The position numbers and the translations under genes are program-made. The notes beneath the pieces are model-generated. The model did not search any database, was not told where the DNA came from, and saw nothing but the letters and a program-made list of their open reading frames with translations. Shown one piece after another: positions 32,541-48,908 of a stretch of 48,908 bases of DNA. Numbering within the stretch: position 1 is the stretch's first letter; every line of letters starts with the position of its first letter. Source of the stretch: Roseomonas sp. (GTDB lineage Bacteria; Pseudomonadota; Alphaproteobacteria; Acetobacterales; Acetobacteraceae); assembly GCA_964263755.1 (NCBI GenBank), contig CAXVWQ010000507.1:1-48908 (forward strand). The letters are read 5' to 3'.

Positions 32541-33386
32541 ATGGACTGCGTCGACTGCGGCTCAAGGGCCACCTCGGAGCGGCGGGACCGCACGGCGCAG
32601 GGCTACCGGCGCTTTCGACTGCCGCGATTGCGGCCGGGGGTTCAACGAGCGCAGTGGTGGCGCACTGAACCGAACGGGGTATCCGAGCGACGTGATCGCG
32701 CTGGTGGTGCTTTGGCGGCTGCGCTACCGGCTGACCCTGCGCGACCTGGCCGAGATGCTCCTCGTCCGCGGCTTTGTCTTCAGCCATGAGGCCGTCCGGG
32801 ACTGGGAGGCGAGGCTCACGCCCGTGCTGGCGGACGAACTTCGGCGTCGCCGTCACGGTAAGGGCGGAGCTGGCCGGCGCTCCTGGCACGTGGACGAAAC
32901 ATACCTGCGGGTCCGTGGGCGCTGGTGTTCTCCCTACCGCGCTAGCGACCGCAAAGGCGACCTGGTCGATACCATGTTGAGTGAGCACCGGGACATGGCG
33001 GCAGCGAAGGCGTTCTTCCGTTCCGCCAAGTCGGTCACTGGCATGACGCCCGATCGCGTCACCACCGACGGGCACCGACCCTACCCACGCGCGATCCGCT
33101 CGACACTGGGTCGGGGCGTGCAGCACCGGACCAGCCGGTTCAAGAACAACAGCCTGGAGCAAGATTATCGGGGCATCAAAGGCCGGATTCGATGTATGCG
33201 CGGCTTCGATGTATGCGCGGCTTCGGGGCTTTCGAGGCGGCCGCGAGGTTCTGCCGAGGCTACGATGAGCTACGCAACCATCTCCGTCCCAGCCCCCGTC
33301 ACGGCCAGCACGTTCCCACCAGCCGCCGACGTCTCGTCCACCTCCGTCGCGCGACCGCGGCACTCGCCATTCTGCAAGCCGCGTAG
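32541..33386 (+). pseudogene. IS6-family DDE transposase with N-terminal CxxC/CxxC zinc ribbon, two frameshifts
   Basis: MDCVDCGS...YRRFR/CRDCGRGFNERSG...WHVDETYLRVRGRW...VTTDGH...NNSLEQDYRGIK; extra base near 32619 and a 17-bp duplication at 33188-33221. Confidence 0.85.
33188..33221 (+). repeat. Perfect 17-bp tandem duplication
   Basis: TTCGATGTATGCGCGGC twice in tandem. Confidence 0.95.
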
Positions 33387-33445
33387 GCCGGACTGGCGCA
33401 CCATGCGCGCCCCGTGCCCGCCTTGGCGCGAGCGCTTACAGAACC

Positions 33446-33495
33446 CCCCTGCTTGTCGGTGGACACTCGGTAGTAGACGACGAAGCGGGTTACGG
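33446..33495 (-). pseudogene. 5' stub of a serine recombinase cut by the IS6 end
   Basis: TRFVVYYRVSTDKQG runs directly into the IS6 right inverted repeat; YxRVST is the serine recombinase catalytic motif. Confidence 0.7.
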
Positions 33496-33661
33496 GGGCT
33501 GCGCGGGTCCGGGCTGTGTCGTCAAGGCCACTATCATCCCCCTCCCCGGCCCGTTTTACAATCTCAAAGGACCGGACCCTGTTGGCGAAGTCGGCAGCCC
33601 TGGTGTCACTCTCCGAAGGCGGCTGCAACAAATTGCTAAAGTGGGCCTCAGTGCCAGGTCG

Positions 33662-34210
33662 TCACACGCGGCGGAATGTGCCGGGGTAGTCTAGGACCAA
33701 GCCATCCGTGTCCACCGGCAGCTCGCCGACATAGCCCCGGAACAGCCCCTCGTAGCGGTAAAGCCGTCCTGCTTCGAGGCAGGTGTAGCGTTGCCGGACC
33801 GGCTCCGGTGCGAGCGCGGGCACCGCGACGTAGGCGACCAAGATCTCGCGCGCCTCGCCCAACGCAAGGCCGAGCCTGCGAATGGGCAGGGTGTTGGTGA
33901 AGGGCGTCGCTGAAATGTCGATATCCATGCATCCCTGCAGCGCCTCAACAGGACATCCCTTGCTGTCCTGCCAATTGCCCTCACCGTCGCTGCGCAGATG
34001 CAGGTGGCGGTCCTCGCCGGCGAGGGACAGCACGGCTTCCCGCACGCGCCAGAGGGGGTCGCAGGCGACGCGGTAATGCAGGCCGTATGGCGTGCCGTGG
34101 CGCGCGCCGACCACCACGCCTTCGGCAGCAACGCCTTCCACTGTGCTGCGGAGGCTGAGGTGCTCGGCGCCGATGCCCTCAGCTGGCGCCCAACGGACGA
34201 CACGGTCCAT
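33662..34210 (-). CDS. Putative glycolipid-binding domain protein (DUF1089-like)
   Basis: GAEHLSL, YRVACDPLWRVR, GCMDIDISATPFTNTLPIRRLGL, QRYTCL, VDTDGLVLDYPGTFRR. Confidence 0.8.
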   Translation of the reverse strand: MDRVVRWAPAEGIGAEHLSLRSTVEGVAAEGVVVGARHGTPYGLHYRVACDPLWRVREAVLSLAGEDRHLHLRSDGEGNWQDSKGCPVEALQGCMDIDISATPFTNTLPIRRLGLALGEAREILVAYVAVPALAPEPVRQRYTCLEAGRLYRYEGLFRGYVGELPVDTDGLVLDYPGTFRRV

Positions 34211-34211
34211 G

Positions 34212-34781
34212 TCAGCACGGTCCGGCAGCAGCTGCGGCATCCAGCGCGCGGTAGAGCGTCGCGTGGTGGCAGCGCAGCACCTTGACCGCCGCGCGCACGG
34301 AGGTGCCCTCGTGCACCAGCCGGCGGCCAAGGGCGACCTGGTCCGGGGTGAGGGAGGGCGGCCGCCCAAAGCGCACGCCGCGCTGCTTGGCCACCTCGCG
34401 CCCTGCGCTGGTCCGGCTCAGGATCAGCGCCCGTTCGAACTCGGCGATGCCGGCGAACACGGTCAGCATCATCCGGCCCGCGGGCGAGGTGGTGTCCGCC
34501 CAAGGCTCGGCCAGGCTGCGCAGCCCGGCGTCCACGTCGCGCAGCCGCTCGGCGATGTCGAGCAGGTCGCGCGTCGAGCGGGCCAGCCTGTCGAGGCGCG
34601 CGACCACGACCACGTCTTCCTCGCGCACTTGGTCGAGCAGCCGGTCCAGCTCCGGCCGACTGCGCCGCGCCCCGGACACCTTCTCCGCATAGACCCGCCG
34701 GCAGCCAGCCTCGCGCAGCCCCCGGCGCTGGAGCGCCAGGTCCTGGTCGTCGGTGGACACGCGGGCGTAGCCGAGGAGCAT
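34212..34781 (-). CDS. Serine recombinase (resolvase/invertase) with C-terminal HTH
   Basis: MLLGYARVSTDDQDL, EKVSGA, VARLDRLARS, DTTSPAGRMM, AEFERALI, GVRFGRP, ATLYRAL. Confidence 0.95.
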   Translation of the reverse strand: MLLGYARVSTDDQDLALQRRGLREAGCRRVYAEKVSGARRSRPELDRLLDQVREEDVVVVARLDRLARSTRDLLDIAERLRDVDAGLRSLAEPWADTTSPAGRMMLTVFAGIAEFERALILSRTSAGREVAKQRGVRFGRPPSLTPDQVALGRRLVHEGTSVRAAVKVLRCHHATLYRALDAAAAAGPC

Positions 34782-34799
34782 GGGCGGAGACGGTCCGGC

Positions 34800-34860
34800 A
34801 GAGTGGTGCAGAACTGTATCGGAAGGCCGCCCTTCTGCAACGGACTTCTGCGACGCGCGA
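34800..34860. promoter_or_regulatory. Candidate res site upstream of the resolvase
   Basis: TGCAGAA (34807-34813) and TTCTGCA (34833-34839) inverted pair, plus TTCTGCG (34846-34852), immediately upstream of the recombinase start. Confidence 0.5.
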
Positions 34861-35116
34861 AGTGCCCGTCCCGCCTGGCTCGGTGTTCCTGCCGCGGAAC
34901 TTGGAAGTTGCGCGACACCCAACCGCCAGGTCACCGGCTGGGGTGGCTGCCCAGCCGCCGCAGCACGTAGCGCACCGCCTCGCGCGCCGCGTCCATCGCC
35001 TGCTGCTCTCCCGGCGTACCGGCGCTGTCGTGCGCCCGCTGCACCAGGTGGGCCATCTGGGATTGGGATTGCCCCGGCTTCATGGACACCGATGATGCTT
35101 TCACACGAGGTGTCCC

Positions 35117-35461
35117 ATGGTCGCCAGAACACATCCCCCGTATTCGCCGGAGTTCCGGCGCCAGATCGTCGAGTTGGTGCGTGCCGGGCGTGACCCGGTG
35201 AGCCTCTCGCGCGAGTTCGAGCCGTCCGTGCAGGCGATCCGCAAGTGGGTCGTGGCAGCTGACCGGCAGGAGGGTCGGCGAGATCCGAAACCCGCATCGG
35301 CTCCGGCCGGTGACGCGCTGACGACGGCGGAGCGAGATGAGCTGGCCCGGCTGCGGCGCGAGAACCGCCAGCTCCGAGTGGAGCGCGACATTCTCTCTCG
35401 AGCGGCGGCTCGGTTCGCGAGGGAGACCGGGGCGATCCCATCCGGGTCTTCCGGTTCATGA
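35117..35461 (+). CDS. IS3 transposase OrfA
   Basis: YSPEFRRQIVELVRAG...AIRKWV HTH and ELARLRRENRQLRVERDIL leucine zipper. Confidence 0.9.
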   Translation: MVARTHPPYSPEFRRQIVELVRAGRDPVSLSREFEPSVQAIRKWVVAADRQEGRRDPKPASAPAGDALTTAERDELARLRRENRQLRVERDILSRAAARFARETGAIPSGSSGS

Positions 35462-36321
35462 GCGCGAACCAGGCCTCCTTTCGGGTCGCGACGATGGCGC
35501 GTCTCTTCGGCGTCTCGCGGGCCGGTTACCACGCCTGGGCGAACCGCCCGCCCTCGGCCCATGCGGAGGCCGATGCGGTGCTGCTGGAGCGGATCCGGAC
35601 GGTGCACACCGCATCTCGCGAAACCTACGGCGCGCCGCGGGTCCACGCCGCGTTGCGCGCCGGAGGCGAGAGGCACGGCCGAAAGCGGATCGCGCGCCTC
35701 ATGCGCGGCGCCGGGCTTGTCGGCGCCAGCCACCGCCGGGGCGGGCCCGTGACGACGCGCCGTGACCGGGAGAGCCGACCGGCAGCCGACCTCGTGGACC
35801 GCGACTTCTCCGCTCTCGACCCGAACCGGCTGTGGGTGACAGACATCACCTTCATTCCGACAGCGGCCGGCTTCCTCTACCTCGCCGTCGTGCTCGACGC
35901 GTGGTCGCGGCGCATCGTCGGCTGGTCCATGGCGAACCATCTGCGGACCGAGCTCGTCCCCGACGCCCTCGAGATGGCCTTGGGACCGCGGCGCCCCGGC
36001 GACGTCATCATTCATTCGGACCAGGGGTCGCAGTTCACGTCTCTGGCCTTCGGCAACCCCTGCCGCGAGGCGGGCGTGCGGCCGTCCATGGGCTCGGTGG
36101 GCGACGCATACGACAACGCGATGTGCGAGAGCTTCTTCGCCGGCCTCGAATGCGAACTCCTCGCCCGCCGACGCTTCACCTCGCAAGCCGAGGCCCGCAT
36201 GGCCGTCTTCAGCTACATCGAGGGCTGGTACAATCCGCTCCGCCTTCACTCCGCCCTCGGCTACAAGTCCCCCGCTGCCTACGAGAAGGAGCAGACCCAG
36301 CCCGCCCCAGCACTCCCCTGA
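35458..36321 (+). CDS. IS3 transposase OrfB (DDE integrase core)
   Basis: YGAPRV, WVTDITFI, IIHSDQGSQF, DNAMCESFF, RLHSALGY; ATGA overlap with orfA. Confidence 0.92.
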   Translation: MSANQASFRVATMARLFGVSRAGYHAWANRPPSAHAEADAVLLERIRTVHTASRETYGAPRVHAALRAGGERHGRKRIARLMRGAGLVGASHRRGGPVTTRRDRESRPAADLVDRDFSALDPNRLWVTDITFIPTAAGFLYLAVVLDAWSRRIVGWSMANHLRTELVPDALEMALGPRRPGDVIIHSDQGSQFTSLAFGNPCREAGVRPSMGSVGDAYDNAMCESFFAGLECELLARRRFTSQAEARMAVFSYIEGWYNPLRLHSALGYKSPAAYEKEQTQPAPALP

Positions 36322-36364: not shown

Positions 36365-37456
36365 TCACCGTGTGACCCGAAACCTCTCCATCGCCTGGGT
36401 GTCCACCTCCCAGCCTCCGCCCGGTTCTTGCGAAAGCAGGAGATGGCCGTCCGAGGTGCGAGTCACAGGGGTGCGATAGAAGCGCTCGGCGTGTGGGTCC
36501 ACCGAAGGGGCGTAGTACTCCGCGAGGGAGGCGTTGCGGATGGACGCCATGAGCGGAGCATGGACCTGCTGATCGCCGTGGCTGGAGACCACGAGCCCCG
36601 CGCTCTCGGCGAGCACCGCGATCCGGGCAAAGGCGCTTACACCGCCCGTCCAGCGGGCATCGGGCTGCAGGATCGCGACGGCGCCGGTGGCGATGAGGTC
36701 GCGGAAGCCCGAGAGGCCGTACTCCTGCTCACCGGCCGCGATCGGGAGCGACAGATGGCGGCCGACGCGCGCGTAGCCCTCGTAATCCTCTGGGCCAACC
36801 GGCTCCTCGAACCAGGCGATGTCGAACTCGGCCACCCTTGAGCCGAAGCAGATCGCTTCGTGTGCTCGATAGGCGCCGTTGGCATCGAGCATCAGAGCAA
36901 TCTCGGCGCCGAGCGTGGCGCGCGCCGCGCGCACCCGTGCCACGTCTTCCGTCATCGTGAGGCCGCCGACCTTGATCTTCACGCCACGCGCGCCGAGCGC
37001 CGCGTAGGACGCTACCTCCCGCTGCAGATCCGAGTGGGTCTTGCCGGCGCCGTAATAGCCGCCCGCGATGTAGAATGGCACCCGATCCGTGGCGCCGCCG
37101 AGGAGGCGGTGCAGCGGCATGCCAGCGCGCTTCGCCTTCAGGTCCCAGAGAGCGAGGTCCACCGAGGACAGGGCGTAATGCTCGTGGCCGCGGCGCCCGT
37201 AGAGTTTCGGATCGTCGAGGTGGGACCAGACGGCGGCGATCAGGTCGGCGTCCATGCCCACGAGCTCGCGCGCGAAGACCTCGCGGATGGCGACCTCGCC
37301 CGGCGAGGCGCCGCCAATGCCGACGCCGACGAGGCCGTCCTCCGTCTCGATGCTGAGGACGCATCGCCGGACCTCCGTCCAGGTATGGGTGCCGTTGCGG
37401 ATCGGCACGTCGCGCGGCCAGGCATAGTCGTCGCAGCGTACTTTCGTGATCCTCAT
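36365..37456 (-). CDS. Mandelate racemase/muconate lactonizing enzyme family protein
   Basis: SSVDLALWDLKAK, GVKIKVG (KxK), MLDANG, WFEEP, AAGEQE, SSHG. Confidence 0.9.
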   Translation of the reverse strand: MRITKVRCDDYAWPRDVPIRNGTHTWTEVRRCVLSIETEDGLVGVGIGGASPGEVAIREVFARELVGMDADLIAAVWSHLDDPKLYGRRGHEHYALSSVDLALWDLKAKRAGMPLHRLLGGATDRVPFYIAGGYYGAGKTHSDLQREVASYAALGARGVKIKVGGLTMTEDVARVRAARATLGAEIALMLDANGAYRAHEAICFGSRVAEFDIAWFEEPVGPEDYEGYARVGRHLSLPIAAGEQEYGLSGFRDLIATGAVAILQPDARWTGGVSAFARIAVLAESAGLVVSSHGDQQVHAPLMASIRNASLAEYYAPSVDPHAERFYRTPVTRTSDGHLLLSQEPGGGWEVDTQAMERFRVTR

Positions 37457-37470
37457 CCCCGGCCGTCCCC

Positions 37471-38643
37471 TCAATGTTCCGCGAACGACCCGTCGGCGTG
37501 GGCGCGGAACGCAACGGGGATGGGCCGCATCGGGTGGCGTGCGGCGACCTCGGGGATGAGGGCCGTGCCGAGGCCGGGACCGTCCGGGACGGCGACGTAT
37601 CCGCCGTCTCGAACCGGGGTCCGCGTGACGAGGCCCGCCGCGACGTGGTCCAAGGACGCCTCATCATCGGTATAGCGGGCGGTGGGATATTCGAGGAGGA
37701 GTAGGTTCGGCACCGCGGCGGCGAGGTGGAGCGAAGCGGCGGTGGCGACGGGCGAGTAGGTGTTGTGCGGCACGACGTCAACGTCGAAGGCCTCCGCGAG
37801 GGCGGCGACCCGGCGGCCACCAGTGATGCCGCCGCAGAGGGAGAGGCAGGGCCGAAGATAGCGCGCCGCCCCGGCCACGAGCAGATCACGGAACTGGTCA
37901 AGGGCATGGAAGCGCTCACCCGTAGCCACGCCGATGCCGATGCCCACTTGGACGGCCGCCATCGCCGCGATGGAGTCCGGGCGGATCGGATCCTCCAGGA
38001 AGAGCGGATTGAGGTGGGCGATGCGCCGCCCGAAGGCGATGGCCTCCGCCGGCCGCAGCCGCCGATGGATTTCGACGCAGAGGTCGGCCTCGCCGATCGC
38101 CGCCCGCACCGCCTCCAGCGTCGTGACGGCGTCGTGCATCCGGGCGGCGTGGGTGCCGGCGAGCGGGATGGAAAGGTCGTCATCGAGGAAGGGGTTCACG
38201 TGCCCGACGGCGGAGTAGCCCGCCCGCACGAGCAGGACACAGCTTTCGATCAGTTCCTCACGTGTCCGGCCACGCGCTTGGCCGTACACCCGCACGCGGT
38301 CGCGAAGGGGCCCACCGAGGAGGGCATGGATCGGCTCGCCCAGCCGCTGCCCCTTCAGGTCCCAGAGCGCCACGTCCACCGCCGAGACGGCGGCCATGAT
38401 GACGGCGCCAGAATAGCTCCCGAAGCGTCGCATCGCCTGCCAATGCCGCTCGATGGCCTCGGAATCCTCGCCGACGAGGTAGGCGCCGAACTTCGCGATG
38501 GCGGCGGCGGTCGCCTCGATGTGCGACCAAGCACCGGCCTCGCCCACCCCGACCCGGCCATCGCGGGTTTCCACTTGGACGAAGAGATACTTGTCCGCAA
38601 GGACCGGCGCAACGCGGGCGATGAGACGGCCTTTCGCCCCCAT
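37471..38643 (-). CDS. Enolase-superfamily acid-sugar dehydratase-like protein (galactonate dehydratase-like)
   Basis: LFVQVETRDGRVGVGE, SAVDVALWDLKG, VEIHRR, FLEDP, ATGER, VPHN, LLEY. Confidence 0.85.
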   Translation of the reverse strand: MGAKGRLIARVAPVLADKYLFVQVETRDGRVGVGEAGAWSHIEATAAAIAKFGAYLVGEDSEAIERHWQAMRRFGSYSGAVIMAAVSAVDVALWDLKGQRLGEPIHALLGGPLRDRVRVYGQARGRTREELIESCVLLVRAGYSAVGHVNPFLDDDLSIPLAGTHAARMHDAVTTLEAVRAAIGEADLCVEIHRRLRPAEAIAFGRRIAHLNPLFLEDPIRPDSIAAMAAVQVGIGIGVATGERFHALDQFRDLLVAGAARYLRPCLSLCGGITGGRRVAALAEAFDVDVVPHNTYSPVATAASLHLAAAVPNLLLLEYPTARYTDDEASLDHVAAGLVTRTPVRDGGYVAVPDGPGLGTALIPEVAARHPMRPIPVAFRAHADGSFAEH

Positions 38644-38645
38644 GC

Positions 38646-40190
38646 CTAAGACACCTTGAAGTGGTTCAACTGCCAGTCATTGCCGTTCGGCATAACGGCG
38701 GGCTCCAAACCGGCACGGTGGCCGAAGGCAACGACCTCGTTCGTAAGCCAGACCATCGAGGCGGAGGCATCCATCAGCCGCTGCATCTCGACGACCTGTC
38801 GGCCGCGGCCCTCCGCGTCCACGTTGACGAGGCTCTCGGCCTGGAGGCGTGCGAAATTCGGGGAATTCCAGCGGCCCCAGTTCCACTCGCCGATCTGGTC
38901 GGGGACGAACCAGCGGGCATTGAAGTTCGGGTCCACGTGAGCGTTGAAGCGGAGAAAGAACAGCTCCAGCAATCGGCCCGATTCGCCGCGACCGGACGAC
39001 CAGTAGGCGCCGCCCTCCCGCTGGTCCACCTCCAGGTTGATCCCGACCTCGCGTAGCAGCGCCTGAGCGACGAGGGCCATGTTCTGGAAAGCCGGCTCGT
39101 TCAGGATCGTCACCTTCAGCGCCAGCGGCAGTGCGACACCCGAGGCGGCGAGCAGCGCTCGCGCGCGGGCGGCATCGCGTTGGTACACGGGCGCCTCGGG
39201 CCAGTGCCCCACCAATCCCGGTGGGATCATCGCGTTGAGGCGGACGGCGTCGCCCCGGTAACCCGCGGCGACCATCTGGTCTACGTCGAGAGCGGCGCGG
39301 ATGGCCTGCCGGACCGCGGGGTTGTCGAGCGGCGCCCGCTCCATGTTCATGCCGAGCCAAACGAAGCGCTGCCCCGGGCGCTTCCGCACGACGACACCCC
39401 GCGTCCGTGCGAGGGTGTTCGCGGCGGAGATCGAGAGTTCGGTGAAGTCCAGTTCCCGCGACTGGAGCGCGAGTTCGGCCGTCCGCGGGTTGGCGATGTA
39501 GCGGAGGTTGACTGTCGGGATGTGCGCTGGCGGCCCGCCCGCGTAGCCGGGGTTGGCGACGAGGGTGACGCCGCGCCCCGGATTGTAGGCCGTGAGCCGG
39601 TAGGCGCCGGAGCCGACGGGTGACTGGGCGTGGCGAATACCGAGCGCCGCGAGGGCCTTGCGGGAGTGGATGGCGCCCGCGCCACCGACGAGCGCGACGT
39701 TCCAGACGGCGGGCGAGGGCTTCGAGAAGACGAGGCTGCCGGAGTAGGTGTCGTGGACCCGCACTTCCAAGAGGTTCGCCCAGTCGTCGCGGTAGCTGGA
39801 GATCCGCCCGTCGGCCTCGGGGCGGAGGTAGCGCTCGAAGGAGAACTTCACGTCGTCGGCGGTCATCTCGCCGTAGCCGTCGGTGAACATCTGGCCGCGC
39901 TTGAGGGTGAAGGCGATCTCCGTCGGCGAGGCCTGCTCGATCCGCTCGGCCGCGTCGAGCTCCCGCACGTACTCGCCGGGACGGTAGGAAACGAGGCGCT
40001 GGAACACCGCGCGGATGACGTTGCCGTCCACCTGGCCCGTGCGGAACGGCGGGTCGAGGTTCTGCACGTCGCGGTCTATGCGGACGGAGAGCGCGGCGCC
40101 GTCCTGGGCGCGCGAGAGCCGCGGGGCAAGGACGCCGGCGGCCCCGCCGGCGAGGACCGCGCGGCGGCCCGGGGAGTCGTGCTGCGTCAT
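38646..40190 (-). CDS. ABC transporter substrate-binding protein, family 5 (Dpp/Opp-like)
   Basis: GRRAVLAGG leader, NLDP, MTADDVKFSFER, PVGSGAYRL, VRQAIRAALD. Confidence 0.9.
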   Translation of the reverse strand: MTQHDSPGRRAVLAGGAAGVLAPRLSRAQDGAALSVRIDRDVQNLDPPFRTGQVDGNVIRAVFQRLVSYRPGEYVRELDAAERIEQASPTEIAFTLKRGQMFTDGYGEMTADDVKFSFERYLRPEADGRISSYRDDWANLLEVRVHDTYSGSLVFSKPSPAVWNVALVGGAGAIHSRKALAALGIRHAQSPVGSGAYRLTAYNPGRGVTLVANPGYAGGPPAHIPTVNLRYIANPRTAELALQSRELDFTELSISAANTLARTRGVVVRKRPGQRFVWLGMNMERAPLDNPAVRQAIRAALDVDQMVAAGYRGDAVRLNAMIPPGLVGHWPEAPVYQRDAARARALLAASGVALPLALKVTILNEPAFQNMALVAQALLREVGINLEVDQREGGAYWSSGRGESGRLLELFFLRFNAHVDPNFNARWFVPDQIGEWNWGRWNSPNFARLQAESLVNVDAEGRGRQVVEMQRLMDASASMVWLTNEVVAFGHRAGLEPAVMPNGNDWQLNHFKVS

Positions 40191-41185
40191 GGGATCGTCT
40201 CCTGGAGGGTCGGGGCCGGGCCGTCGGGCGCGCCCGGCAGCGCGAGCGAGTAGGGATAGTGGCAGCGGACGAGGCGCCCCGGGCCGATCGGGAGGAGGTC
40301 GGGGAGGTCGCGCGCGCAACGGGGCTGCGCGACGGGGCAGCGCGTGTGGAAGCGGCAGCCCGGCGGGATGGCCGCGTTGCTCGGGATCTCCCCCTTGAGG
40401 ACCACGGGCGGCGCGAGACCACCGGCGGAGAGGAGCGGGTTCGTGGAGATGAGGGTCGCGGCGTAGGGGTGCGCCGGGCGGGCGAAGAGGAGCGGCGTCG
40501 GCGCGTCCTCGATGACCTGCCCGAGATACATCACGACGGTGCGGTGGGTGACCCGGCGCACGACGTGGAGGTTATGGCTCACCATGAGGAGGGTGAGCCC
40601 CATCTCCCGCCCGAAGCCGAGAAGGAGGTTCAGGAGTTCCCCCTGCACCGAGACGTCGAGCCCCGCCGTCGGCTCGTCCGCGACGAGGAGCGAAGGCCGC
40701 GGCAGCAGCGCCCGGATCACGCCGACCCGCCGTGCCTGCCCGCCGGAGATCTCGTGGGGGTAGCGCGAGAGGATGGAGGGGGGGAGGCGGAGGGTGCCGA
40801 GGAGTTCCTGGATGCGCGCCTCCGTCGCGTCGCGGTCGAGGCCATGGATCGGCACGGCTTCCCGAAGCAGGCCGCCGATGCTCATGCGGGGGGACAGCGT
40901 CGCGGCGGCGTCCTGCATGAGCATCCCCACCCGCCGCCGAAAGGCCGCCCTGTCCGCTCGCGCCGGCGCGAAAGGCGAAAGGCCGAGGACGGTGGCCGCG
41001 CCGGCCGTCGGGTGCGTGAGCCCGGCGAGGACGCGGCAGAGCGTCGTCTTCCCCGATCCGGATTCGCCGACGACGCCGATCGTGTCGCCCGCCGCCACGT
41101 CCAGCGACACGTGGTCGAGGGCGTGGATCCGGCCGCCGAAGACGACGCTCACGCCGTCGAGGCGGATGGCGGGGGCGGCGGTCAC
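40187..41185 (-). CDS. Peptide/nickel ABC transporter ATP-binding protein (DppF/OppF-like)
   Basis: GESGSGKTT, ISGGQARR, ADEPTAGLDVSVQ, GCRFHTRCP. Confidence 0.92.
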   Translation of the reverse strand: MTAAPAIRLDGVSVVFGGRIHALDHVSLDVAAGDTIGVVGESGSGKTTLCRVLAGLTHPTAGAATVLGLSPFAPARADRAAFRRRVGMLMQDAAATLSPRMSIGGLLREAVPIHGLDRDATEARIQELLGTLRLPPSILSRYPHEISGGQARRVGVIRALLPRPSLLVADEPTAGLDVSVQGELLNLLLGFGREMGLTLLMVSHNLHVVRRVTHRTVVMYLGQVIEDAPTPLLFARPAHPYAATLISTNPLLSAGGLAPPVVLKGEIPSNAAIPPGCRFHTRCPVAQPRCARDLPDLLPIGPGRLVRCHYPYSLALPGAPDGPAPTLQETIP

Positions 41186-42159
41186 GCCGCGATCTCCTCC
41201 AACCGCGCGCAGGCGGCTGCCTGATCGCCCCGGAAGGACCGGAGCGGCGGCATCGCGGTGAGGCAAACCGGCGCGGCGTGCGGGCAGCGTGGGGCGAAGA
41301 TGCAGCCGGGCGGGGTCTCGACGGGCTCCGGCACCCGTCCCGGGATGAAGCGCAGCGGCACGTCGGGGGGCGCGTCGTCCACCTCGCAGGCGACGAGGGC
41401 GCGGGCGTAGGGGTGGAGCGGGCGGAGGAGCACGTCGCGCACCGGCCCGCGCTCCACGACGTGGCCGCCATACATCACCGCCACCTCGTCGCAGAGCCGC
41501 AGCACGGTGCCGAGGTGGTGCGAGATGAAGATGATCGTCCCGGAGATCTCCCGTCGCAGCCCGATCATCAGCTCGATGATCTGCGCCTCGATCGTCGCGT
41601 CGAGCGCGGTCGTCGGCTCGTCGGCGATGAGGAGGTCGGGGCGGCAGATCAGCGCCATCGCGATCGTCACGCGCTGGCGCATCCCGCCGGAGAGGGCGCC
41701 GGGATAGTCGTCCAGCCGCCGCCCGGGGTCCGGGAGCCCCACCCGCGCGAGCGCCTCCGCCGCGATGCGGCGCGCCTCGGCCCGCGACGCGCCGGGGTGC
41801 CGGCGCCGGACGACGTCCGCAAGGAGGGTGCCGACGCGAAAGACGGGATTGAGCGCCGTCATCGGGTCCTGGAAGATCATCGCGAGCCGGCGCCCGCGGA
41901 GCGACCGCATCGCCGCGGGGTCGAGCGACAGCAGGTCCACGCCGTCGAGAAGGATGCGCCCCTCGACGCGGAGCGAGGGGTCCAGCAGCCCCATGACCGC
42001 GTTGACGAAGGAGGACTTGCCCGACCCGGACTCCCCGACGATGCCAAGGACGCGCCCGCGCGGAAGGTCGAGGTCCACACCGCGGAGGATCGCCGCGGAC
42101 CCACGGCTCGTCATCGCGGTCAGGCGGAGGCCGCGGACGGAGAGGAGGGGCTCAGCCAA
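41182..42159 (-). CDS. Peptide/nickel ABC transporter ATP-binding protein (DppD/OppD-like)
   Basis: GESGSGKS, IFQDPMTALNP, LSGGMRQR, ADEPTTALD, GCIFAPRC. Confidence 0.92.
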   Translation of the reverse strand: MAEPLLSVRGLRLTAMTSRGSAAILRGVDLDLPRGRVLGIVGESGSGKSSFVNAVMGLLDPSLRVEGRILLDGVDLLSLDPAAMRSLRGRRLAMIFQDPMTALNPVFRVGTLLADVVRRRHPGASRAEARRIAAEALARVGLPDPGRRLDDYPGALSGGMRQRVTIAMALICRPDLLIADEPTTALDATIEAQIIELMIGLRREISGTIIFISHHLGTVLRLCDEVAVMYGGHVVERGPVRDVLLRPLHPYARALVACEVDDAPPDVPLRFIPGRVPEPVETPPGCIFAPRCPHAAPVCLTAMPPLRSFRGDQAAACARLEEIAA

Positions 42160-43015
42160 CCCGCGGATCCCCCCCGGAACGCGGGTCCACGGCGCGCCGC
42201 ACCGCCTCCCCGAACAGGGTGAAGCCGAGGGTCGCGAGGGCGAGGGCGGCGCTTGAGACGAGGACGGGCAGGACCGTCTCCGTCATGTTCTGGTACCCGT
42301 CCTGCAGCAGCCCGCCCCAGCTCGCGAGCGGGGGCCGCAGCCCGAGCCCGAGGAAGGAGAGGCCGGCCTCGATCGCGATGACGATGGGGATGTCGAGGGA
42401 GGCGATGACGACGAGCGGCGGGAGGATGTTCGGGACGACGTGGAAGAGGAGGATGCGGGTCTCCGACGCCCCGAGCACCGTCTCGGCCTCGATGTAGGGC
42501 TCATTCCGCACCGAGAGCACCTGCGCCCGCGCCACGCGGCCGAAATGCGGGACGAGGCTGACGGCGATGACCGCGACGAGGGTCGGCAGGGAGGGGCCGA
42601 GGACGGCGACGGCGCCGAGGGCGAGGATCACGCTCGGGAAGGAGGAGACGGAATCGAAGGCGACGAGGACGAGCCGCTCGACCGGCCCCGCGAGGTAGGC
42701 CGAGAGGATGCCGAGCCCCGCGCCGACGACGAGGGCGAGGGCGATGACCGAGAGTGCGACGAGGAGGGCGACCCGCGTCCCGAAGACGTGCCGGCTGAGG
42801 AGGTCGCGCCCGAGCTGGTCGGTGCCGAGAAGGTGCTCCGCGGAGGGCGGGGCGAAGCGGTTGAGGACGTCGAGCCGGTTCGGGTCATGCGGCGCGAGGA
42901 CGGGCGCGAGAACCGCGACGAGGCACAGCGCGACGACGAGCGCGAGGCCGATCGCTCCGCCGGGATGCGCGGCGATGCGACGCAGCGGCCGTCCGAGGGC
43001 CGCGAGGGCGCCCAA
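42152..43015 (-). CDS. Peptide ABC transporter permease (DppC/OppC-like)
   Basis: HLLGTDQLGRDLLSR, YIEAETVLGAS, EAGLSFLGLG, SWG. Confidence 0.92.
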   Translation of the reverse strand: MGALAALGRPLRRIAAHPGGAIGLALVVALCLVAVLAPVLAPHDPNRLDVLNRFAPPSAEHLLGTDQLGRDLLSRHVFGTRVALLVALSVIALALVVGAGLGILSAYLAGPVERLVLVAFDSVSSFPSVILALGAVAVLGPSLPTLVAVIAVSLVPHFGRVARAQVLSVRNEPYIEAETVLGASETRILLFHVVPNILPPLVVIASLDIPIVIAIEAGLSFLGLGLRPPLASWGGLLQDGYQNMTETVLPVLVSSAALALATLGFTLFGEAVRRAVDPRSGGDPRVG

Positions 43016-43020
43016 CGGGT

Positions 43021-43977
43021 TCAGCGCCGCGCCCCCCGGATGCGCGGATCGAACAGCGCGTAGGCGAGCTCCGTGAGGAGGTTCACGGCGACGAAGATGA
43101 CGACGACGACGAAGACCGTGCCCTGGAGAACGGAGAAGTTGCGGGCCTGGAGGGCGTCGTAGAGGACGCTCCCGAGGCCCTGGCGGGCGAAGAGGATCTC
43201 GATCAGCACCGCGCCGCCGAGGAGGCGCCCGACGCCCATCCCGACGACCGCGACGGTCGGCAGCACCGCGTTCTTCAAGGCGTACTTGTAGAGCACGAGC
43301 CGTTCCGGGATGCCGTAGGCGCGGACGGTGCGGACGTGGTTCTGCACGAGCGTCTCGAGCATGGAGGTTCGCACGAGGCGGGCGATGATGCCGATCCAGC
43401 CGAGCGCGAGGGCGACGGTCGGGAGGATCATGCCGAGGAGGCGGTCGCCGATCCCCTCGTCCTCCCCGCCGCCGAGGACGGGGAGCCAGTCCAGCCAGAC
43501 GGAGAAGGTGACGAGGAGGACGATGCCGAGGATGAAGCTCGGCACCGAGACGAAGACGACCGAGACGGCGGCAATGAGGACGTCGGCGACGGAACCCGGT
43601 CGGACGGCGCTCCAGACCCCCGCGGGGATGCCGACGAGGCAGGCAAGACCCATGGCCGCGACGGCGAGGGCGAAGGTGTTGGGGAGCGCGGCGAGGACGA
43701 TCGCGTTCACGCTGCGTCCGGAGACGACGTCCGTGCCGAGGTCGCCCGCCGCGACCCGGGAGAAGAACCGCCAGAGCCGGATGTGGACTGGCTGGTCGAG
43801 GCCCATCTCCGCGACAAAGCGCCGGGCATATTCCGGCGTGGCAAGGGGACCGAGTAGCGCCGTCGCGGGATCGCCGGGCACGAAGCTCAGGAGAACGACG
43901 ATGAGGGTCATCGCGCCGAGCACGGCGAGCATCGCCGTGACGAGGCGGCTCACGAGGTGGCGTTCGGTGTGCCTCAT
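43021..43977 (-). CDS. Peptide ABC transporter permease (DppB/OppB-like)
   Basis: PGDPA, GLDQP, GDLGT, ARLVRTSMLE, YALKNAVLP, IEILF. Confidence 0.92.
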   Translation of the reverse strand: MRHTERHLVSRLVTAMLAVLGAMTLIVVLLSFVPGDPATALLGPLATPEYARRFVAEMGLDQPVHIRLWRFFSRVAAGDLGTDVVSGRSVNAIVLAALPNTFALAVAAMGLACLVGIPAGVWSAVRPGSVADVLIAAVSVVFVSVPSFILGIVLLVTFSVWLDWLPVLGGGEDEGIGDRLLGMILPTVALALGWIGIIARLVRTSMLETLVQNHVRTVRAYGIPERLVLYKYALKNAVLPTVAVVGMGVGRLLGGAVLIEILFARQGLGSVLYDALQARNFSVLQGTVFVVVVIFVAVNLLTELAYALFDPRIRGARR

Positions 43978-44070
43978 CCGTCAGCCCCGCGGCGACGCGG
44001 TTCCGGGGGGCTCATGGCACGCTCCCTCGCAAGAGATGCGCCGCGCTAAGGATGCGTCGCGGCTCCGGGC

Positions 44071-45648
44071 TCACGCTGCGCGGCTCCGGCCGGACCGAGC
44101 CGCGGCCATGGGGCTGGAGAAGAGGTGGAAGACGTCGTCCACGCCCTCGATGATGGAATGGGGGACAAGCCGACCCATCATCTCCGGGGAGGTCAGGGCG
44201 GTGCCGATGGCTTCCACTTCCGCCGAAAGCGGCCGGTCCGTCCGGTAGAAAGCCGCGTGCTCCCGCACGACGCCGTGGATCAGTCCCGGCACATTCCCGG
44301 GCGCATCGCCCGAGAGGTCCATCGCCTGCGCCGCCAGCAGGGCCTCGATGGCCGCGAGGCGGTGCATCGCGACGATCTGCTCCCCCAGTCGCTCCACGAC
44401 GAGCGGGAGGAACGCCGCCTCATCCTCCATCCCATGCGCCACGACGAGCGATTGCATGGAGACCGGGGCGGCGAGCGTCAGGACACGCACGAAGAGGTCA
44501 CCCGCGAGCTTTATCACCGGCCCGAACCCCGTCGCGACGGTTCCCGGGGCGACGAGGTTGACCGGCAGGTTCCGCCGCCCGCCGTTGCCCAGCAGCACGC
44601 AGCGGTTGAACGCGTTGCGTGCCACGTGCGCGAGCGACACTTGCACGGTCTGGAGGAAGAGGGTGACGTCGAGCGGGAGCGAGCCCCCGGAGCTGAGGAC
44701 GCGGTTCTCCACGACGACGGGGTTGTCGTCCGTCCGCCCCGTGGCCGCGAGAGTGGTGCGGCCGGAGACACGGAGCGCCTCGAAGGCCGTGCCGAAGACC
44801 TGCGCCATCATCCGGAGGCTCAGCGGGTCCTGGACGTGAGTGGCGTCGGGCCAGTCCCAGCCCTCGGCGTTGCGGCAGAGCCAGTCTCCGATCGAGGCCT
44901 CCCGCTCGGTGCCGACATGGGCCACGGCCCGCCAAGGATCGCGTGCGGCACCGAGCGCCCCCGCGGCCGTCAACCCGGTCGCGAGCAGGAGCCGCACGGC
45001 GTAGGCCGCATCTCGCGTGGCTTCCGCCGCCGCCGCGTAGGCGACCGCGTTCGTGGAAATGGCGGCGAGGCTGTCCCGCGGCGCGAGGGCGACCGGGTGC
45101 AGACCGGCGGCGGCGAGCGCCGTCTCGGCCGGCAGCCGCCGCCCGTGGTGGACGGCCTCGCCCACCCCCGTCAGCACCGCGCCGATCTGTCCCATGAGGC
45201 CGATGTCGGCGCAGCCGATCGAGCCAGTGCGGCGCACCACCGGGACGACGTCGGCCGCGAGGAGGCGGAGGAAGGCCTCCACGAGGTCGGTCGTGCAGCC
45301 GACCCGGCCGGTCAGGGCCATGTTCACCCGGATCGCCATCGCGTTCCGCACGATCGGGAGCGGGAAGGGCTCCCCCGTGCCGAAGTGGTGCGCGCGCACC
45401 AAGCCAGCGTTGAAGGCCGCGAGCTGGCCAGGCGTCCACTCCACGTCCTTCATGGCGCCGACGCCCGTGTTCGCGCCGTAGACGGGGTGGCCGGCGCGGA
45501 TCTCCCCCTCCAGCACGGTCCGCGCGGCGCGGACCCGCCCCATCGCGGCCGGGTCGGCGACGAGCGCAGCGGTGCCGCTGCCGATGAGGCACAACGCCGC
45601 GAAGTCCAGCGGTCGTCCGTCCAGCACGAAGGTCGTCGGCAGAGTCAC
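44071..45648 (-). CDS. Aromatic amino acid lyase (HAL/PAL fold) lacking the Ala-Ser-Gly MIO tripeptide; ergothionase-like
   Basis: [23 protein letters not shown] (canonical GSVGASGDL), [30 protein letters not shown]; GTG start overlapping the upstream stop. Confidence 0.85.
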
Positions 45649-46508
45649 GCTCCGTCCCCACCTTTCGCTATCCGGGTAATCCCCCACTCTGCCATCATCG
45701 TCAGGATTGTGGGATATCCCAGATGTGGGACACTTGGCACCAGTGGGATGCGGGTCGCCGCGGAGGCAGGGGCGAGCGGCCCGTCGCGCTTCATGCACTC
45801 CAGCGCTCCCTCCAGCTGCGCCCGCAGCGCCGTCGAGGCGCGGGGGAAGGGCATGGACCAGACGAGGCCCGTGCGGTGGAGGTAGGAGGGCTTCAGCCGC
45901 GCGTTGTTCTTCGCGATCCAGCCGACGACGGTGGACGCCGTGACGTTGGCGTAGGCGCGGCCCGACAGGATCGCCTGCGCCGCGTCGGTCGAGGACGCGA
46001 AGGACTGCGTGGTCCAGCCCGTCGTCGCGGCCTGCTCCTGCACCCAGCGCTCGTAGATGGAGCCGGACTGCACCGCGATGACGCGCCCCCGCAGTTCCGC
46101 GAGGTTCGTGATCTCCGGCGCCGAGCGGAGGGTGAGGAAGCGGAAATCCGCGTCCACGAAGCCCTCCAGGAACAGCATCTGCTCCGCCCGCTCCGGCGTC
46201 ACCGTCACGACGGCGACGAGGAAGTCGTAGGTGCCCGCCTGCATCGCGGGGATGAGGCCGGCGAAGCCCGCGCCGGTCACCTCGATGGGGCGGCCGATGC
46301 AACGCGACATCTCCTGCGCCACGTCAATGTTGAAGCCCTCCAGCCCGCCCTGCACCCGCGGCATCGCGTGCGGCGCGAAGGTCGCGTCGATGGCGGCCCG
46401 CAGGGGGCGGGTGTCCTGCGCCGCGGCGGGCCGGACCTCCGCGCCGGGCAGCCCGCCGGCGAGGCCGGCCAGGAGGCCGAGGGCGGCGAAGGTGCCACGC
46501 TTCATCAT
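45645..46508 (-). CDS. Polar amino-acid ABC substrate-binding protein (family 3), C-terminus apparently truncated
   Basis: [51 protein letters not shown]; the usual terminal KWFG helix is missing and the frame reads on through an AT-richer segment. Confidence 0.75.
45710..45721. promoter_or_regulatory. Palindromic operator candidate upstream of the lyase
   Basis: Perfect 12-bp palindrome TGGGATATCCCA, followed by further TGGGA half-sites at about 45726 and 45744. Confidence 0.45.
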
Positions 46509-46643
46509 GTCGGGATGCTCCTGAGAGCCACCAGGGCCGAGGACGAGAGTGAGGCAAGCCGCACGCCGGGTTCAGCGCGGCCCTGCCGAAGGGCCCCATC
46601 GGCATTTCCGAAGGGAGCCCGGGCCGCTACCCTGGTTCGCTCG

Positions 46644-48343
46644 ATGGAACTCCGCCCCCTCTCCTACTTCGCCGCCGCCTGCCTCCAGCCCTCGCTCGGG
46701 CGGGCCGCGGCGTCGCTCGGCGTCGCCCCCTCGACGCTCTCCGCCTCCCTCCGCGCGCTGGCTCTACCGCGCCGCCGCGCCCCTGCTGCACGCGGAGGCC
46801 TTCGCGGCGCCACGCCGCCGCCGGCACCGGGCCACCGGGGCACCTCGTCCTCCGCGTGCGGCCGCTCTTCACCTTCGGGCGGATCACGAAGGCGGTGGCG
46901 GGCGCGATCGAATCCGTCGCTTCCGCGGAGGTCTTCGTGGAGCCGGTCCGGTTCGACGGGCACGGACCGGCGGTCGCGATCCTCTACGCGGAGGAGGGAG
47001 AGGATGGTGAGACGCTGCTGGAAGACCCCTTGGTCCTCGCCCGGGCTTCGCCGAGCGGAACGAGCGGGCCGGGGACCGTGTCGGATCTGCTGCGCGGCCC
47101 GATCCTCGTCCCCGCGCTCCCCGGCCCCGTCGCGCGACCGCTCCGCGCGGCCCTCGACGGCCGCGACGTCACGTTCCTCGACGAGGAGCCCGGGGCCTTG
47201 CCGCGCCTCGCGGCGGAGCGGCCCGACGCCGCCTTCGCGGTGCCCGCGAGCCTTCTCTCCGAACGGCTCGGCCTCCCGCGCTTCCGCGCCGCGCCCCTGG
47301 ACCCGCCCCTTACCGCGACGATCGTCGCCCGGGGCGGCACGGACACGACGGGGCGGGCCATCGTCGCCGCGATCCGGGACCGGCTCGCCGCCTCGGATGG
47401 GGCGACCCCCTTCCGGCCGGTCCTGACGCTCCGCGGGCTCCGCGCCTTCGAGGCGGTCGGGCGGCTCCGCGGCGTCATGGCCGCCGCGCGCGGCCTCGGC
47501 GTCGCGCAACCCGCGGTGACGGAGGCGCTGCGCCGGATGGAGCGCGCCCTCGGCGCACCGCTCTTCGAGCGCCGCCGCGACGGGCTGCTGCCGACCACGC
47601 GGGGCGAGCGGCTTCGCGCGGCGGCCCCGATCCTCTCCCGGTTGATGGCCGATCTCGACCGTGGACGCGCCGCGGCGCCGGGCGACCGAGGGGGGCGCAT
47701 CGGCCTCGGACTGCCGCCCTCGGCGGGCCCTGACGACCCCCTCTCCGGGCGGGTCGCGGCGGCGATCGCCGCGTGGCGGGCCGCGCATCCCGGCGCCCGG
47801 CTGCGGGTGACGGAGGCGCCGAGCGCGTCGCTCCACGCCCTCATCCGCGACGGCTCGCTCGACCTCGCGGTGGCCGAGTGGGCGCCATCGCACATGGCCC
47901 GCCTTCCCCTCGCGCCGTGCGAGCCGCTCGTCGCCCTCGCCGCGCCGGGGCGGGCGCTCCCGTCGCCTCTCTCGCTGGAGGATCTCGCCCGGCTGCCCCT
48001 CATCCTGCCCGGTGCGGGCCACGGCATCCGCCGCGTGCTGGACGAGGCGGCGCGGACGGCGGGGCTGCGGCTGCACGACGTGACGGAGGTGGCGTCGCCG
48101 GCCCTCGCCCTCGCCCTCGCGCGGGAGGGCGCGGCGGTCGCGGTCCTCCCGGCCTCGGCCCTCGCCGGGGAGGCCGGCGTCGTGGCGGTCCCGCTCGCCT
48201 TCCCCGCGACGCGGGCGCTCCTCGTCGTCCACGGCGGGGAACGACCCCTGACGGAGGCGGAGCGCGCCCTCGTCGCCGCGCTGCGGACGGCCCTACGCGC
48301 GCTCAGGACCCGCCCGGAGGTCGAAGTGACGCACGCCCCGTAG
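46644..48343 (+). pseudogene. Tandem (double) LysR-type regulator; first module broken by two frameshifts
   Basis: HTH1 MELRPLSYFAAACLQPSLGRAAASLGVAPSTLSASLRAL, frame change to RWLYRAAAPLLHAEAF, second change to HLVLRVRPLFTFG; HTH2 LTLRGLRAFEAVGRLRGVMAAARGLGVAQPAVTEALRRMERALGAPLFERRRDG plus effector domain. Confidence 0.75.
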
Positions 48344-48908
48344 CCGCGCCTCGTCCAGCGCCTCCTCGTAGCCCGCATCGGCGTAGCGCATGATCCCCGT
48401 GGCGGTGTCGTTCGTGAGGGAGAGCCGCAGCCGCTCGTCGGCCTCCCCCGTCCCGTCGGCGATGAGCGTCACGCCCGCCGAGGTCATGGTGCCCGCGTAG
48501 CCGCCGCCGCCCGAATGAATCGCGACGAGGTCGGCGCCGGAGGAGCAGTGGACCATGGCGTTCAGCAGCGGCCAGTCGGCGATGGCGTCGGAGCCGTCGC
48601 GCAGGTTCTCCGTCATGATGTTGGGGTGCGCCATCGCGCCGGCGTCGAGGTGGTCCCGCGTGAAGGCGACGGGGCCGGCGAGCACGCCCTCCCGCACCAT
48701 GCGGTTCACCGCCAGCCCCACCTCGGTGCGCTCCCCGTGGCCGAGCCAGGCGATGCGGGCGGGCAGCCCCTCGAACGGCACGCTCTCCCGGGCGCGGGCG
48801 ATCCAGTTCGTGATGATGCGGTTGTCCGGGAAGCGTTCGAGGAGGAGGTCGTCGATCCGCGCGATGTCGGAGGGCTCGCCGGACAGCGCGACCCAGCGGA
48901 AGGGACCG
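48293..48908 (-). CDS. Urocanate hydratase family protein, C-terminal part, non-canonical motifs (runs off window edge)
   Basis: GPFRWVALSGEPSDI, FEGLPARIAWLG, RDHLDAG, DGSDAIADWPLLNA, GIMRYADAGY; but AHPNIMTE and HSGGGGYAG replace canonical SPNRETE and HHGGGVGMG. Confidence 0.9.
   Translation of the reverse strand, partial: GPFRWVALSGEPSDIARIDDLLLERFPDNRIITNWIARARESVPFEGLPARIAWLGHGERTEVGLAVNRMVREGVLAGPVAFTRDHLDAGAMAHPNIMTENLRDGSDAIADWPLLNAMVHCSSGADLVAIHSGGGGYAGTMTSAGVTLIADGTGEADERLRLSLTNDTATGIMRYADAGYEEALDEARLRGVRHFDLRAGPERA

Follow-up and report, generated by a model that had tools for sequence, protein, structure and literature searches.

What does a Roseomonas sp. bacterium use a locus for in which a urocanase-like gene, a lyase that resembles histidine ammonia-lyase (HAL) and lacks the 4-methylideneimidazole-5-one (MIO) tripeptide, a Dpp-type ABC importer and two enolase-superfamily enzymes stand together? 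The locus lies at the right-hand end of the window, the whole 48,908-nt stretch of DNA that was analysed, which is the entire contig C507 (CAXVWQ010000507.1) of a genome of 520 contigs (4.68 Mb, 88% complete). On balance, we predict that it takes up and breaks down ergothioneine, an antioxidant of fungi, by way of the Dpp-type importer and the enzymes ErtA and ErtB. We infer the activities, ligand, co-transcription and regulation; the gene content, motifs, conserved neighbourhoods, common upstream motif and deletion scars were observed directly. The features of the locus are as follows.

48293-48908, minus strand: fragment of an ertB-type (thiourocanate hydratase) gene, 3' part, 204 codons, with the 5' part past the contig end (NF058530, 7NED)
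46644-48343, plus strand: LysR gene with a double helix-turn-helix (HTH), frameshifted, likely a pseudogene (alignment to the C461 paralogue; Pfam)
45645-46508, minus strand: remnant of a family-3 amino-acid-binding protein gene (85% nucleotide identity to the C461 paralogue)
45709-45734, no strand assigned: candidate operator upstream of the lyase gene, core palindrome TGGGATATCCCA at 45710-45721
44071-45648, minus strand: ertA, predicted ergothionase-type MIO-less trimethylamine lyase, 525 aa (6S7J sequence and fold match)
43021-43977, minus strand: dppB-type permease (NCBIfam; 72-75% to the ert-linked and MR-linked clade)
42152-43015, minus strand: dppC-type permease (NCBIfam; importer clade comparison)
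41182-42159, minus strand: dppD-type ATPase (NCBIfam; importer clade comparison)
40187-41185, minus strand: dppF-type ATPase (NCBIfam; importer clade comparison)
38646-40190, minus strand: SBP5, family-5 (cluster C) solute-binding protein (PF00496)
37471-38643, minus strand: MR1, galactonate-dehydratase-like enolase-superfamily enzyme (NCBIfam DgoD best, below cut-off; PDB; alignment)
36365-37456, minus strand: MR2, mandelate-racemase-subgroup enzyme (NCBIfam; residue set)

All of the genes listed by an earlier sequence-only reading of this DNA were found, and the double-HTH LysR gene lies, as that reading had it, between the urocanase and the amino-acid-binding protein genes. The contig stops at position 48908, and its last 31-55 nt are common to no other contig of the assembly.

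The best PDB sequence match of the lyase is the ergothionase of Treponema denticola (6S7J, E 5e-48, as against 1e-35 for HutH), which is also the top fold match (TM-score 0.88/0.93, root-mean-square deviation 2.0) of its predicted model (predicted local distance difference test, pLDDT, 87.6). At the position of the MIO tripeptide the lyase has Cys-Ala-Asp (GSIGCADIG versus GSVGASGDL in the genome's own HutH), and in the 6S7J alignment its Y57, K67, K380 and E408 align with Tyr54, Lys64, Lys384 and Glu412 of ergothionase. The residue numbering and the roles of Lys64 and Glu412 in ergothionase reportedly go back to Maurer 2019. Tested for membership of the HutH family, the lyase scores 191 bits against a cut-off of 539 (TIGR01225) and lacks the tripeptide. 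It resembles T. denticola ergothionase (6S7J/6S7Q) in having these four residues and no Ala-Ser-Gly, and differs from it in overall sequence (26% identity in the structural alignment), in its Cys-Ala-Asp loop and in a Ser for Asn replacement. According to two preprints on Shewanella (10.64898/2026.04.22.720169, 10.1101/2025.08.13.670108), Lys384 binds the thiolate, and Gln or Asn stands there in lyases for sulfur-free betaines; the residue is replaced in the hercynine and N-pi-methyl-hercynine lyases.

A genome scan with the lyase gave 188 relatives, and the analysis was made on the best 80 of them (64-73% identity, mostly Devosia and Rhizobium). The Cys-Ala-Asp loop is present in 77 of the 80 (Thr-Ala-Asp in three), and the equivalents of K380 and E408 are kept in 79, the remaining row of the alignment being truncated. 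Genes for hydantoinase (ertD), carbamoylase (ertE), DUF917 protein (ertC) and urocanase (ertB) occur together at 60 of these loci. L062 is the one locus that was scanned completely, and there each of the NCBIfam models for ErtD, ErtE, thiohydantoin desulfurase and thiourocanate hydratase has a partner that scores above its cut-off. Another orthologous locus (L082) is from Rhizobium rhizogenes OV677; the strain of the Agrobacterium radiobacter ergothionase is probably now called R. rhizogenes, and its enzyme probably belongs to this clade. A quick tree places the lyase in a clade apart from HutH and leaves its position among the Devosia-type and importer-linked lyases ambiguous.

Of three urocanase models, NF058530 fits the urocanase fragment best (376 bits over model positions 339-534; 272 for the S-methyl form and 247 for HutU). 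The cut-off of 930 bits applies to the whole protein, of which the window holds only 204 aa, and full-length relatives at 74-75% identity to the fragment pass it as ErtB proteins. The best PDB sequence match is 7NED (E 2e-91), which we take to be thiourocanate hydratase. The fragment reads HPNIMTE and GGGGYAG versus SPNRETE and GGGVGMG in the genome's own HutU and so fails the HutU motif test. A family-wide search with it found a match in one of 250 genomes (E 1e-75).

The window pair shares its folds and the order of its reactions with HutH and HutU; it differs in having no MIO tripeptide, and it is 30% and 52% identical to the genome's own HutH and HutU. The earlier claim that both enzymes deviate from HutH and HutU at their catalytic motifs is borne out by this comparison. 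So is the proposal of a non-histidine Hut-like pathway, as the canonical hutU and hutH of the same genome are on a separate contig, C392. The new substrate or downstream route that had been thought possible finds no such support: the Lys384 equivalent is kept, thiourocanate hydratase is the best-fitting model for the urocanase, fragments of thiohydantoin desulfurase genes are present in the genome, and lyase orthologues stand in complete ertA-E operons. The lyase and urocanase are, judging from their sequences, very probably ErtA and ErtB of the ergothioneine pathway. Because the lyase is of the ergothionase type, its orthologues have complete ert loci and the urocanase fits ErtB, the chemistry is most likely that of the known pathway and not that of a new substrate.

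As predicted, the Dpp-type ABC system would import ergothioneine or a close derivative, and the MIO-less lyase would eliminate trimethylamine to give thiourocanate, using Tyr57 as the base alongside Lys67, Lys380 and Glu408, in the manner of the T. denticola enzyme. ErtB, the urocanase paralogue, would hydrate the thiourocanate, a DUF917 enzyme would desulfurise the thiohydantoin, and the products of hydantoinase and carbamoylase genes elsewhere in the genome would open the ring to give glutamate. The genes ertA-dppBCDF-SBP5-MR1-MR2 are likely to form one transcript, started behind the palindromic operator, because the gaps from the lyase to MR2 (93, 5, -5 to -8, -4, -4, 2 and 14 nt) are no longer than 93 nt and no terminator-like site lies between them. 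The promoter and terminator scan of the locus returned no sites. The GC content at third codon positions is 0.91 for the lyase, with no clear foreign signal, and lower for MR1 and MR2 (0.85-0.86).

The known five-step pathway consists of ergothionase, thiourocanate hydratase (NF058530), thiohydantoin desulfurase (NF058529), ErtD (NF058538) and ErtE (NF058540). The window shares with it the ErtA-type lyase and the ErtB-type hydratase, the genome has ertC fragments elsewhere, and the lyase orthologues are in complete operons of this kind. Unlike those operons, the window has ertB upstream of ertA with two relic genes between them, ertD and ertE neither adjacent nor clearly found, and a Dpp-type importer and two enolase-family genes after ertA. 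The ertC (DUF917) fragments (71% and 64%) are two gene starts, each at a contig end, on C94 and C33. Joining either contig to C507 would fit the ertC-ertB order of the relatives, and the join is conjectural. The two starts are similar (L105:1-1582 on C94 and L106:7517-7719 on C33), and the C94 copy follows an AroM-family gene. Together with a gene pair on C461 described below, they suggest that the bin contains either two strains or a second copy of an ertC-ertB-LysR-SBP3 block. Contig C385 (L107:2-7528) carries an ErtD-like hydantoinase along with a nitrilase-type carbamoylase-like and a racemase-like open reading frame (ORF), labelled by reading of their translations; these genes could finish the pathway without ertE.

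Other lyases of this general kind were met in the searches. In the window's own family, L191 (genome G305) and L192 (G133) have complete ertA-D-E-C-B operons with a distant (37%) lyase that has the Cys-Ala-Asp loop. A separate clade of MIO-less HAL-fold lyases (L137:7713-9047, L198:8208-9749, L193:9515-11047 and L194:9485-11011) has a GSIGA[SG]D loop and keeps the Lys384 equivalent, and it has lost Lys64 and the imidazole His. In L137 and L198 the lyase adjoins a 49-50% relative of SBP5; L194 and L198 have an ornithine-cyclodeaminase-type gene close by.

The chemistry of the breakdown is already known; what sets the locus apart is a likely family-5 ergothioneine importer with a candidate operator and regulator. 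SBP5 has 19 close relatives at 57-69% identity, after which the next matches drop to 53% or less. Besides that of the window, six neighbourhoods of these relatives are visible. Three of them are ertB-LysR-ertA-MFS-dppBCDF-SBP5 (L195; MFS, major facilitator superfamily), LysR-argininosuccinate-lyase-like gene-ertA-MFS-dppBCDF-SBP5 (L197) and ertD-E-C-B-LysR-ertA-MFS-dppBCDF-SBP5, a complete five-enzyme operon in a genome with no match to an OsmF-type binding protein (G422). In Devosia epidermidihirudinis E84 (G349) the order is ertD-E-C-B-LysR-MFS-dppBCDF-SBP5; another contig carries ertA and an OsmF system. Rhizobium sp. P38BS-XIX (G385) has an IclR-like gene, dppBCDF, SBP5, MR1 (65%) and MR2 (71%), followed by a convergent MIO-less lyase of another clade; there are no ert genes within 40 kb of this cluster, and an ert operon is elsewhere in the genome. 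The sixth, L196, has dppF-SBP5-MR1 at a contig end. The importer is therefore ert-linked in four of the six visible loci (about three of them independent) and MR-linked in two. An accidental link, as the lyase loci had suggested, was overturned by this importer-side search, and the coupling of a Dpp importer to a Hut-like pair, for which the earlier reading had proposed a neighbourhood check, does recur beside ert genes in other genomes.

In a concatenated transporter tree, in which two outgroup DppF rows are wrong paralogues, the window groups with G385 and the ert-linked members (100/100), and the four ert-linked members form a group of their own (100/100); the window with the ert-linked members alone has 60/72. 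The importer clade is rare, being present in two of 243 genomes of the family of G349, and a family-wide search with SBP5 found distant homologues in 19 of 250 genomes (best 50%). Plasmid searches gave one more ert operon (L177) and, among the regions opened, no combined locus. The argininosuccinate-lyase-family gene of L197 (1194-2729) lies between LysR and ertA. The convergent lyase of G385 (L224:10367-11977) has a GSLGASD loop, a long branch and, by eye, no Lys384 equivalent.

'Dpp-type' describes architecture only, as SBP5 scores 59 bits against a cut-off of 1005 for the DppA model (NF043070). It is a PF00496 protein of the cluster C fold and fails the test for the cluster F-III betaine-binding domain (EgtU/OsmF-type). 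Its predicted model (pLDDT 91.9) has nearest solved folds that are at most 23% identical, the fold search gave no ligand, and an Atlas look-up of a homologue (P0130) returned generic family-5 names. PMC9732360 gives the ergothioneine importer EgtU a cluster F-III binding domain. EgtU/Opu-type systems and the window importer are alike as ABC importers for which ergothioneine is the ligand, predicted in our case, and the OsmF-type genes that take the importer's place in 37 of the 80 lyase loci are of that betaine-binding kind. Unlike EgtU, the window importer consists of five genes, DppBCDF and a cluster C binding protein of an unrelated fold class. The cluster C proteins MoaA and AgaA (mannityl opines) and GbpA (glutathione) have the fold of SBP5 and give a precedent for non-peptide ligands in Dpp-like importers; SBP5 is at most 23% identical to them, so no ligand can be transferred.

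The operator points in the same direction as the neighbourhoods. The palindrome recurs about 62 nt before ertA and is found, within two mismatches, at 53 of the 80 loci. A matrix built solely from 25 distinct ertA-upstream sites gives, at 12 bits or more, a single match in the window's 4.68 Mb genome, the site before ertA; among the 80 loci, 49 of 53 matches of at least 14 bits stand before ertA, and in L177 the matrix matches before ertA and ertD. It also matches about 110-140 nt before dppB in L195, L197, G349 and G422 (15.6-17.7 bits), where the copy is separate from that of ertA and lies behind the MFS gene, and it has no match in the ert-free dpp cluster of G385. A whole-genome pattern, written after the dppB sites were known, gave one match each in four genomes, before dppB in G349 and G422 and before ertA in G385 and G394, and the reversed control gave none. 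Of the Devosiaceae loci, all 8 that have a divergent double-HTH LysR gene carry the motif, versus 1 of the 23 that lack such a gene, these kin not being independent. This LysR is a candidate regulator of ergothioneine catabolism. No orthologue of the ert-linked double-HTH LysR was found in the window's assembly; G385 has a related LysR beside its OsmF system. Double-HTH LysR genes tied to ert operons and the palindrome stand upstream of ertA in L009, L012, L014, L017, L024, L026, L033 and L037, and the family also occurs at L177:13593-14777 and L246:11097.

From these neighbourhoods and motifs, the importer carries, somewhat more probably than not in our judgement, ergothioneine or a close derivative as its predicted ligand. 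More tentatively, SBP5 and DppBCDF may be a second ergothioneine importer unrelated to EgtU, which would replace the betaine-type importer in some ert operons under control of the double-HTH LysR at the TGGGATATCCCA operator. In the literature searched, the bacterial ergothioneine importers are EgtU/Opu-type betaine binders and neither a Dpp-type ergothioneine importer nor such an operator was found, and primary ert papers outside it may show such clusters. If true, the recognition of ergothioneine would have been solved a second time, independently, by a cluster C binder, and estimates of the soil and lichen bacteria that scavenge it would become wider; such importers would be overlooked, since their genes carry annotations as peptide or nickel transporters. 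With the operator and LysR there would be a testable candidate regulator of ergothioneine catabolism.

The two enolase-superfamily enzymes are more difficult to place. DgoD (NF010624) is the best model for MR1 (243 bits, cut-off 311), which fails the DgoD test; where the His-Asp dyad, as we take it, usually has its Asp, MR1 has Cys and its clade Cys or Ser. MR2 has what is presumably a complete mandelate-racemase-type set, KxK (160/162), D191/E217/E243 and H293-D266, with the residue roles assumed from the superfamily. Family-wide searches found distant homologues of MR1 in 29 of 250 genomes (best 49%) and of MR2 in 16 of 250 (best 46%), and a close MR2 is present in one of 301 genomes of the family of G385. 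Six more pairs of SBP5 and MR1 matches are on records of equal size (60910, 6555, 207107, 4714, 4970 and 4291), which suggests co-location. The expectation that lyase, urocanase and Dpp/enolase genes would co-occur in other genomes held for the lyase, urocanase and importer and failed for the enolases, which follow the importer and not the ert genes. MR1 and MR2 are likely to be passengers of the importer, and it is quite doubtful that they are true members of the pathway. In L178 an adenylosuccinate-lyase-family gene precedes an MR2-MR1 tandem. In ert-linked loci a DUF427 gene stands after SBP5 in place of MR1-MR2 (L195:11523-11897, L197:11237-11611, L227:1950-2324). DUF427 is listed beside ergothioneine-type sulfoxide synthases in Table 1 of PMC13674229; this paper on thiohistidine dipeptides was dropped as a source on catabolism, of which its accessible part holds none.

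Several observations weigh against the uptake and breakdown of ergothioneine by this locus as a unit. SBP5, MR1 and MR2 are near the lyase in none of the 80 best lyase loci. The importer is present in two of the 50 lyase-bearing genomes, out of the 80, that were checked for it, and in one of these (G385) it is far from the ert operon. L195 and G422 are close kin, and the window SBP5 is 64-69% identical to the MR-linked and 62-64% to the ert-linked proteins, which leaves its placement ambiguous. The MFS gene just before dppB in the four ert-linked loci could itself be the carrier, and SBP5 has no close solved structure, its ligand being predicted from context. On the enzyme side, the lyase tree included no characterised enzyme, and the Ser that replaces Asn of ergothionase is at a carboxylate-binding position. 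The best ertD is the ErtD-like hydantoinase on C385 (493 bits, cut-off 600), and a clear ertE was not found in this 88% complete assembly of 520 contigs (best 35%).

The importer might also serve MR1 and MR2, its cargo being an acid sugar or an opine-like conjugate of a sugar and an amino acid. ErtA and ErtB would still act on ergothioneine, taken up through the MFS protein or a system of the OsmF type, and the module would have been captured behind ertA. In favour of this, G385 has dppBCDF-SBP5-MR1-MR2 in the same order after an IclR-like gene, where 40 kb hold no ert gene and the operator has no match; SBP5 is followed by MR1 in L196, the equal-size records suggest co-location, the opine binder MoaA is among the four PDB sequence matches of SBP5, and the window's genome has split OsmF fragments. 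We consider it unlikely, as the importer stays next to ert genes in four loci, G349 and G422 have no MR1 in their genomes, and dppB has directly before it, behind the MFS gene, its own copy of the ertA motif. Alternatively, all eight genes could form an extended pathway for a conjugated ergothioneine, with a sugar acid S- or N-linked to it, or for the epimeric D-form; the importer would take this up, and MR2 would racemise, or MR1 and MR2 dehydrate, the released part. The eight genes are tightly coupled and kept with mostly synonymous change in a metagenome relative (X5, below), MR2 has the full two-base racemase set, betaine racemases such as HpbD exist in the enolase superfamily, and MIO-less HAL-fold lyases of other clades adjoin the importer family in G385, L137 and L198. 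Against this, among the records examined only the window's lineage combines ert enzymes with MR1 and MR2, MR2-MR1 tandems at 42-49% identity accompany other transporters at loci free of ert genes, and to our knowledge the five-step ert route needs no enzyme of this type; such a pathway is rather improbable.

The lyase might instead prefer another histidine betaine, such as hercynine, S-methyl-ergothioneine or the sulfonate, in a sister pathway. It has Cys-Ala-Asp where ergothionase has Glu-Gly-Asp in the MIO loop, the Asn-to-Ser change and 26% identity to the solved enzyme, and PMC13405746 cites the A. radiobacter ergothionase from a paper whose title names an ergothioneine sulfonate pathway. 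This is very unlikely, as the Lys384 equivalent is kept and the models that the partners fit are those for thiourocanate hydratase and thiohydantoin desulfurase, not the S-methyl ones; a desulfurase implies a free thione. That the locus is a decaying, non-functional mosaic on a mobile island would agree with its two scarred genes, the nearby IS3 and resolvase genes and the absence of a close lyase orthologue from 60 relatives and 300 family genomes (4 of the 300 with a homologue, best 37%). The eight operon genes are intact, the X5 differences are mostly synonymous and the operator is kept, which makes decay extremely unlikely.

The scars themselves are confined to the two genes between ertB and ertA, which, from their alignment, are relics. 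Relative to an 85%-identical paralogue on C461, the LysR gene has a 71-nt deletion near 46748 and a frameshift after about 38 codons. For the family-3 binding protein, homology to the C461 paralogue stops near 45765 and the frame runs on through non-coding DNA upstream of the lyase. On C461 the 85%-identical LysR and binding-protein pair is followed by its ATPase and permeases, and neither gene is next to the lyase in any of the 80 orthologous loci. The sequence-only reading had allowed for a partly accidental linkage, given the deletion scars; the caution is justified where the LysR and amino-acid-binding protein genes are concerned and does not hold for the Dpp importer, which recurs beside ert genes. 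The junction of binding protein and lyase is unlikely to be a misassembly, because it is bridged by contigs of the lichen metagenome runs X1 and X2, possibly the source sample itself.

The five runs listed are lichen metagenomes from two studies, and X5 comes from the second. The X5 relative, at about 95-96% identity, covers MR2 to ertA and bridges the ertA/dppB (43847-45063) and SBP5/MR1 (38500-38948) junctions; its coverage does not extend over 45640-48908, a gap that is no evidence of absence. The listed differences, a subset, are synonymous to non-synonymous 31:7 in the lyase, 12:6 in MR2 and 7:3 in MR1. Because fungi make ergothioneine (PMC9732360), a lichen habitat fits its use.

Directly past MR2, the region 32692-36321 holds transposase-like, resolvase-like and IS3-like ORFs and a PF06475 gene, with the following element, labelled by reading of its translation.

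35117-36321: IS3 element just past MR2

Much of the window from 1 to 32315 appears to consist of genes for tripartite-transporter binding proteins, regulators and flavin adenine dinucleotide (FAD) monooxygenases, and resembles a catabolic island.

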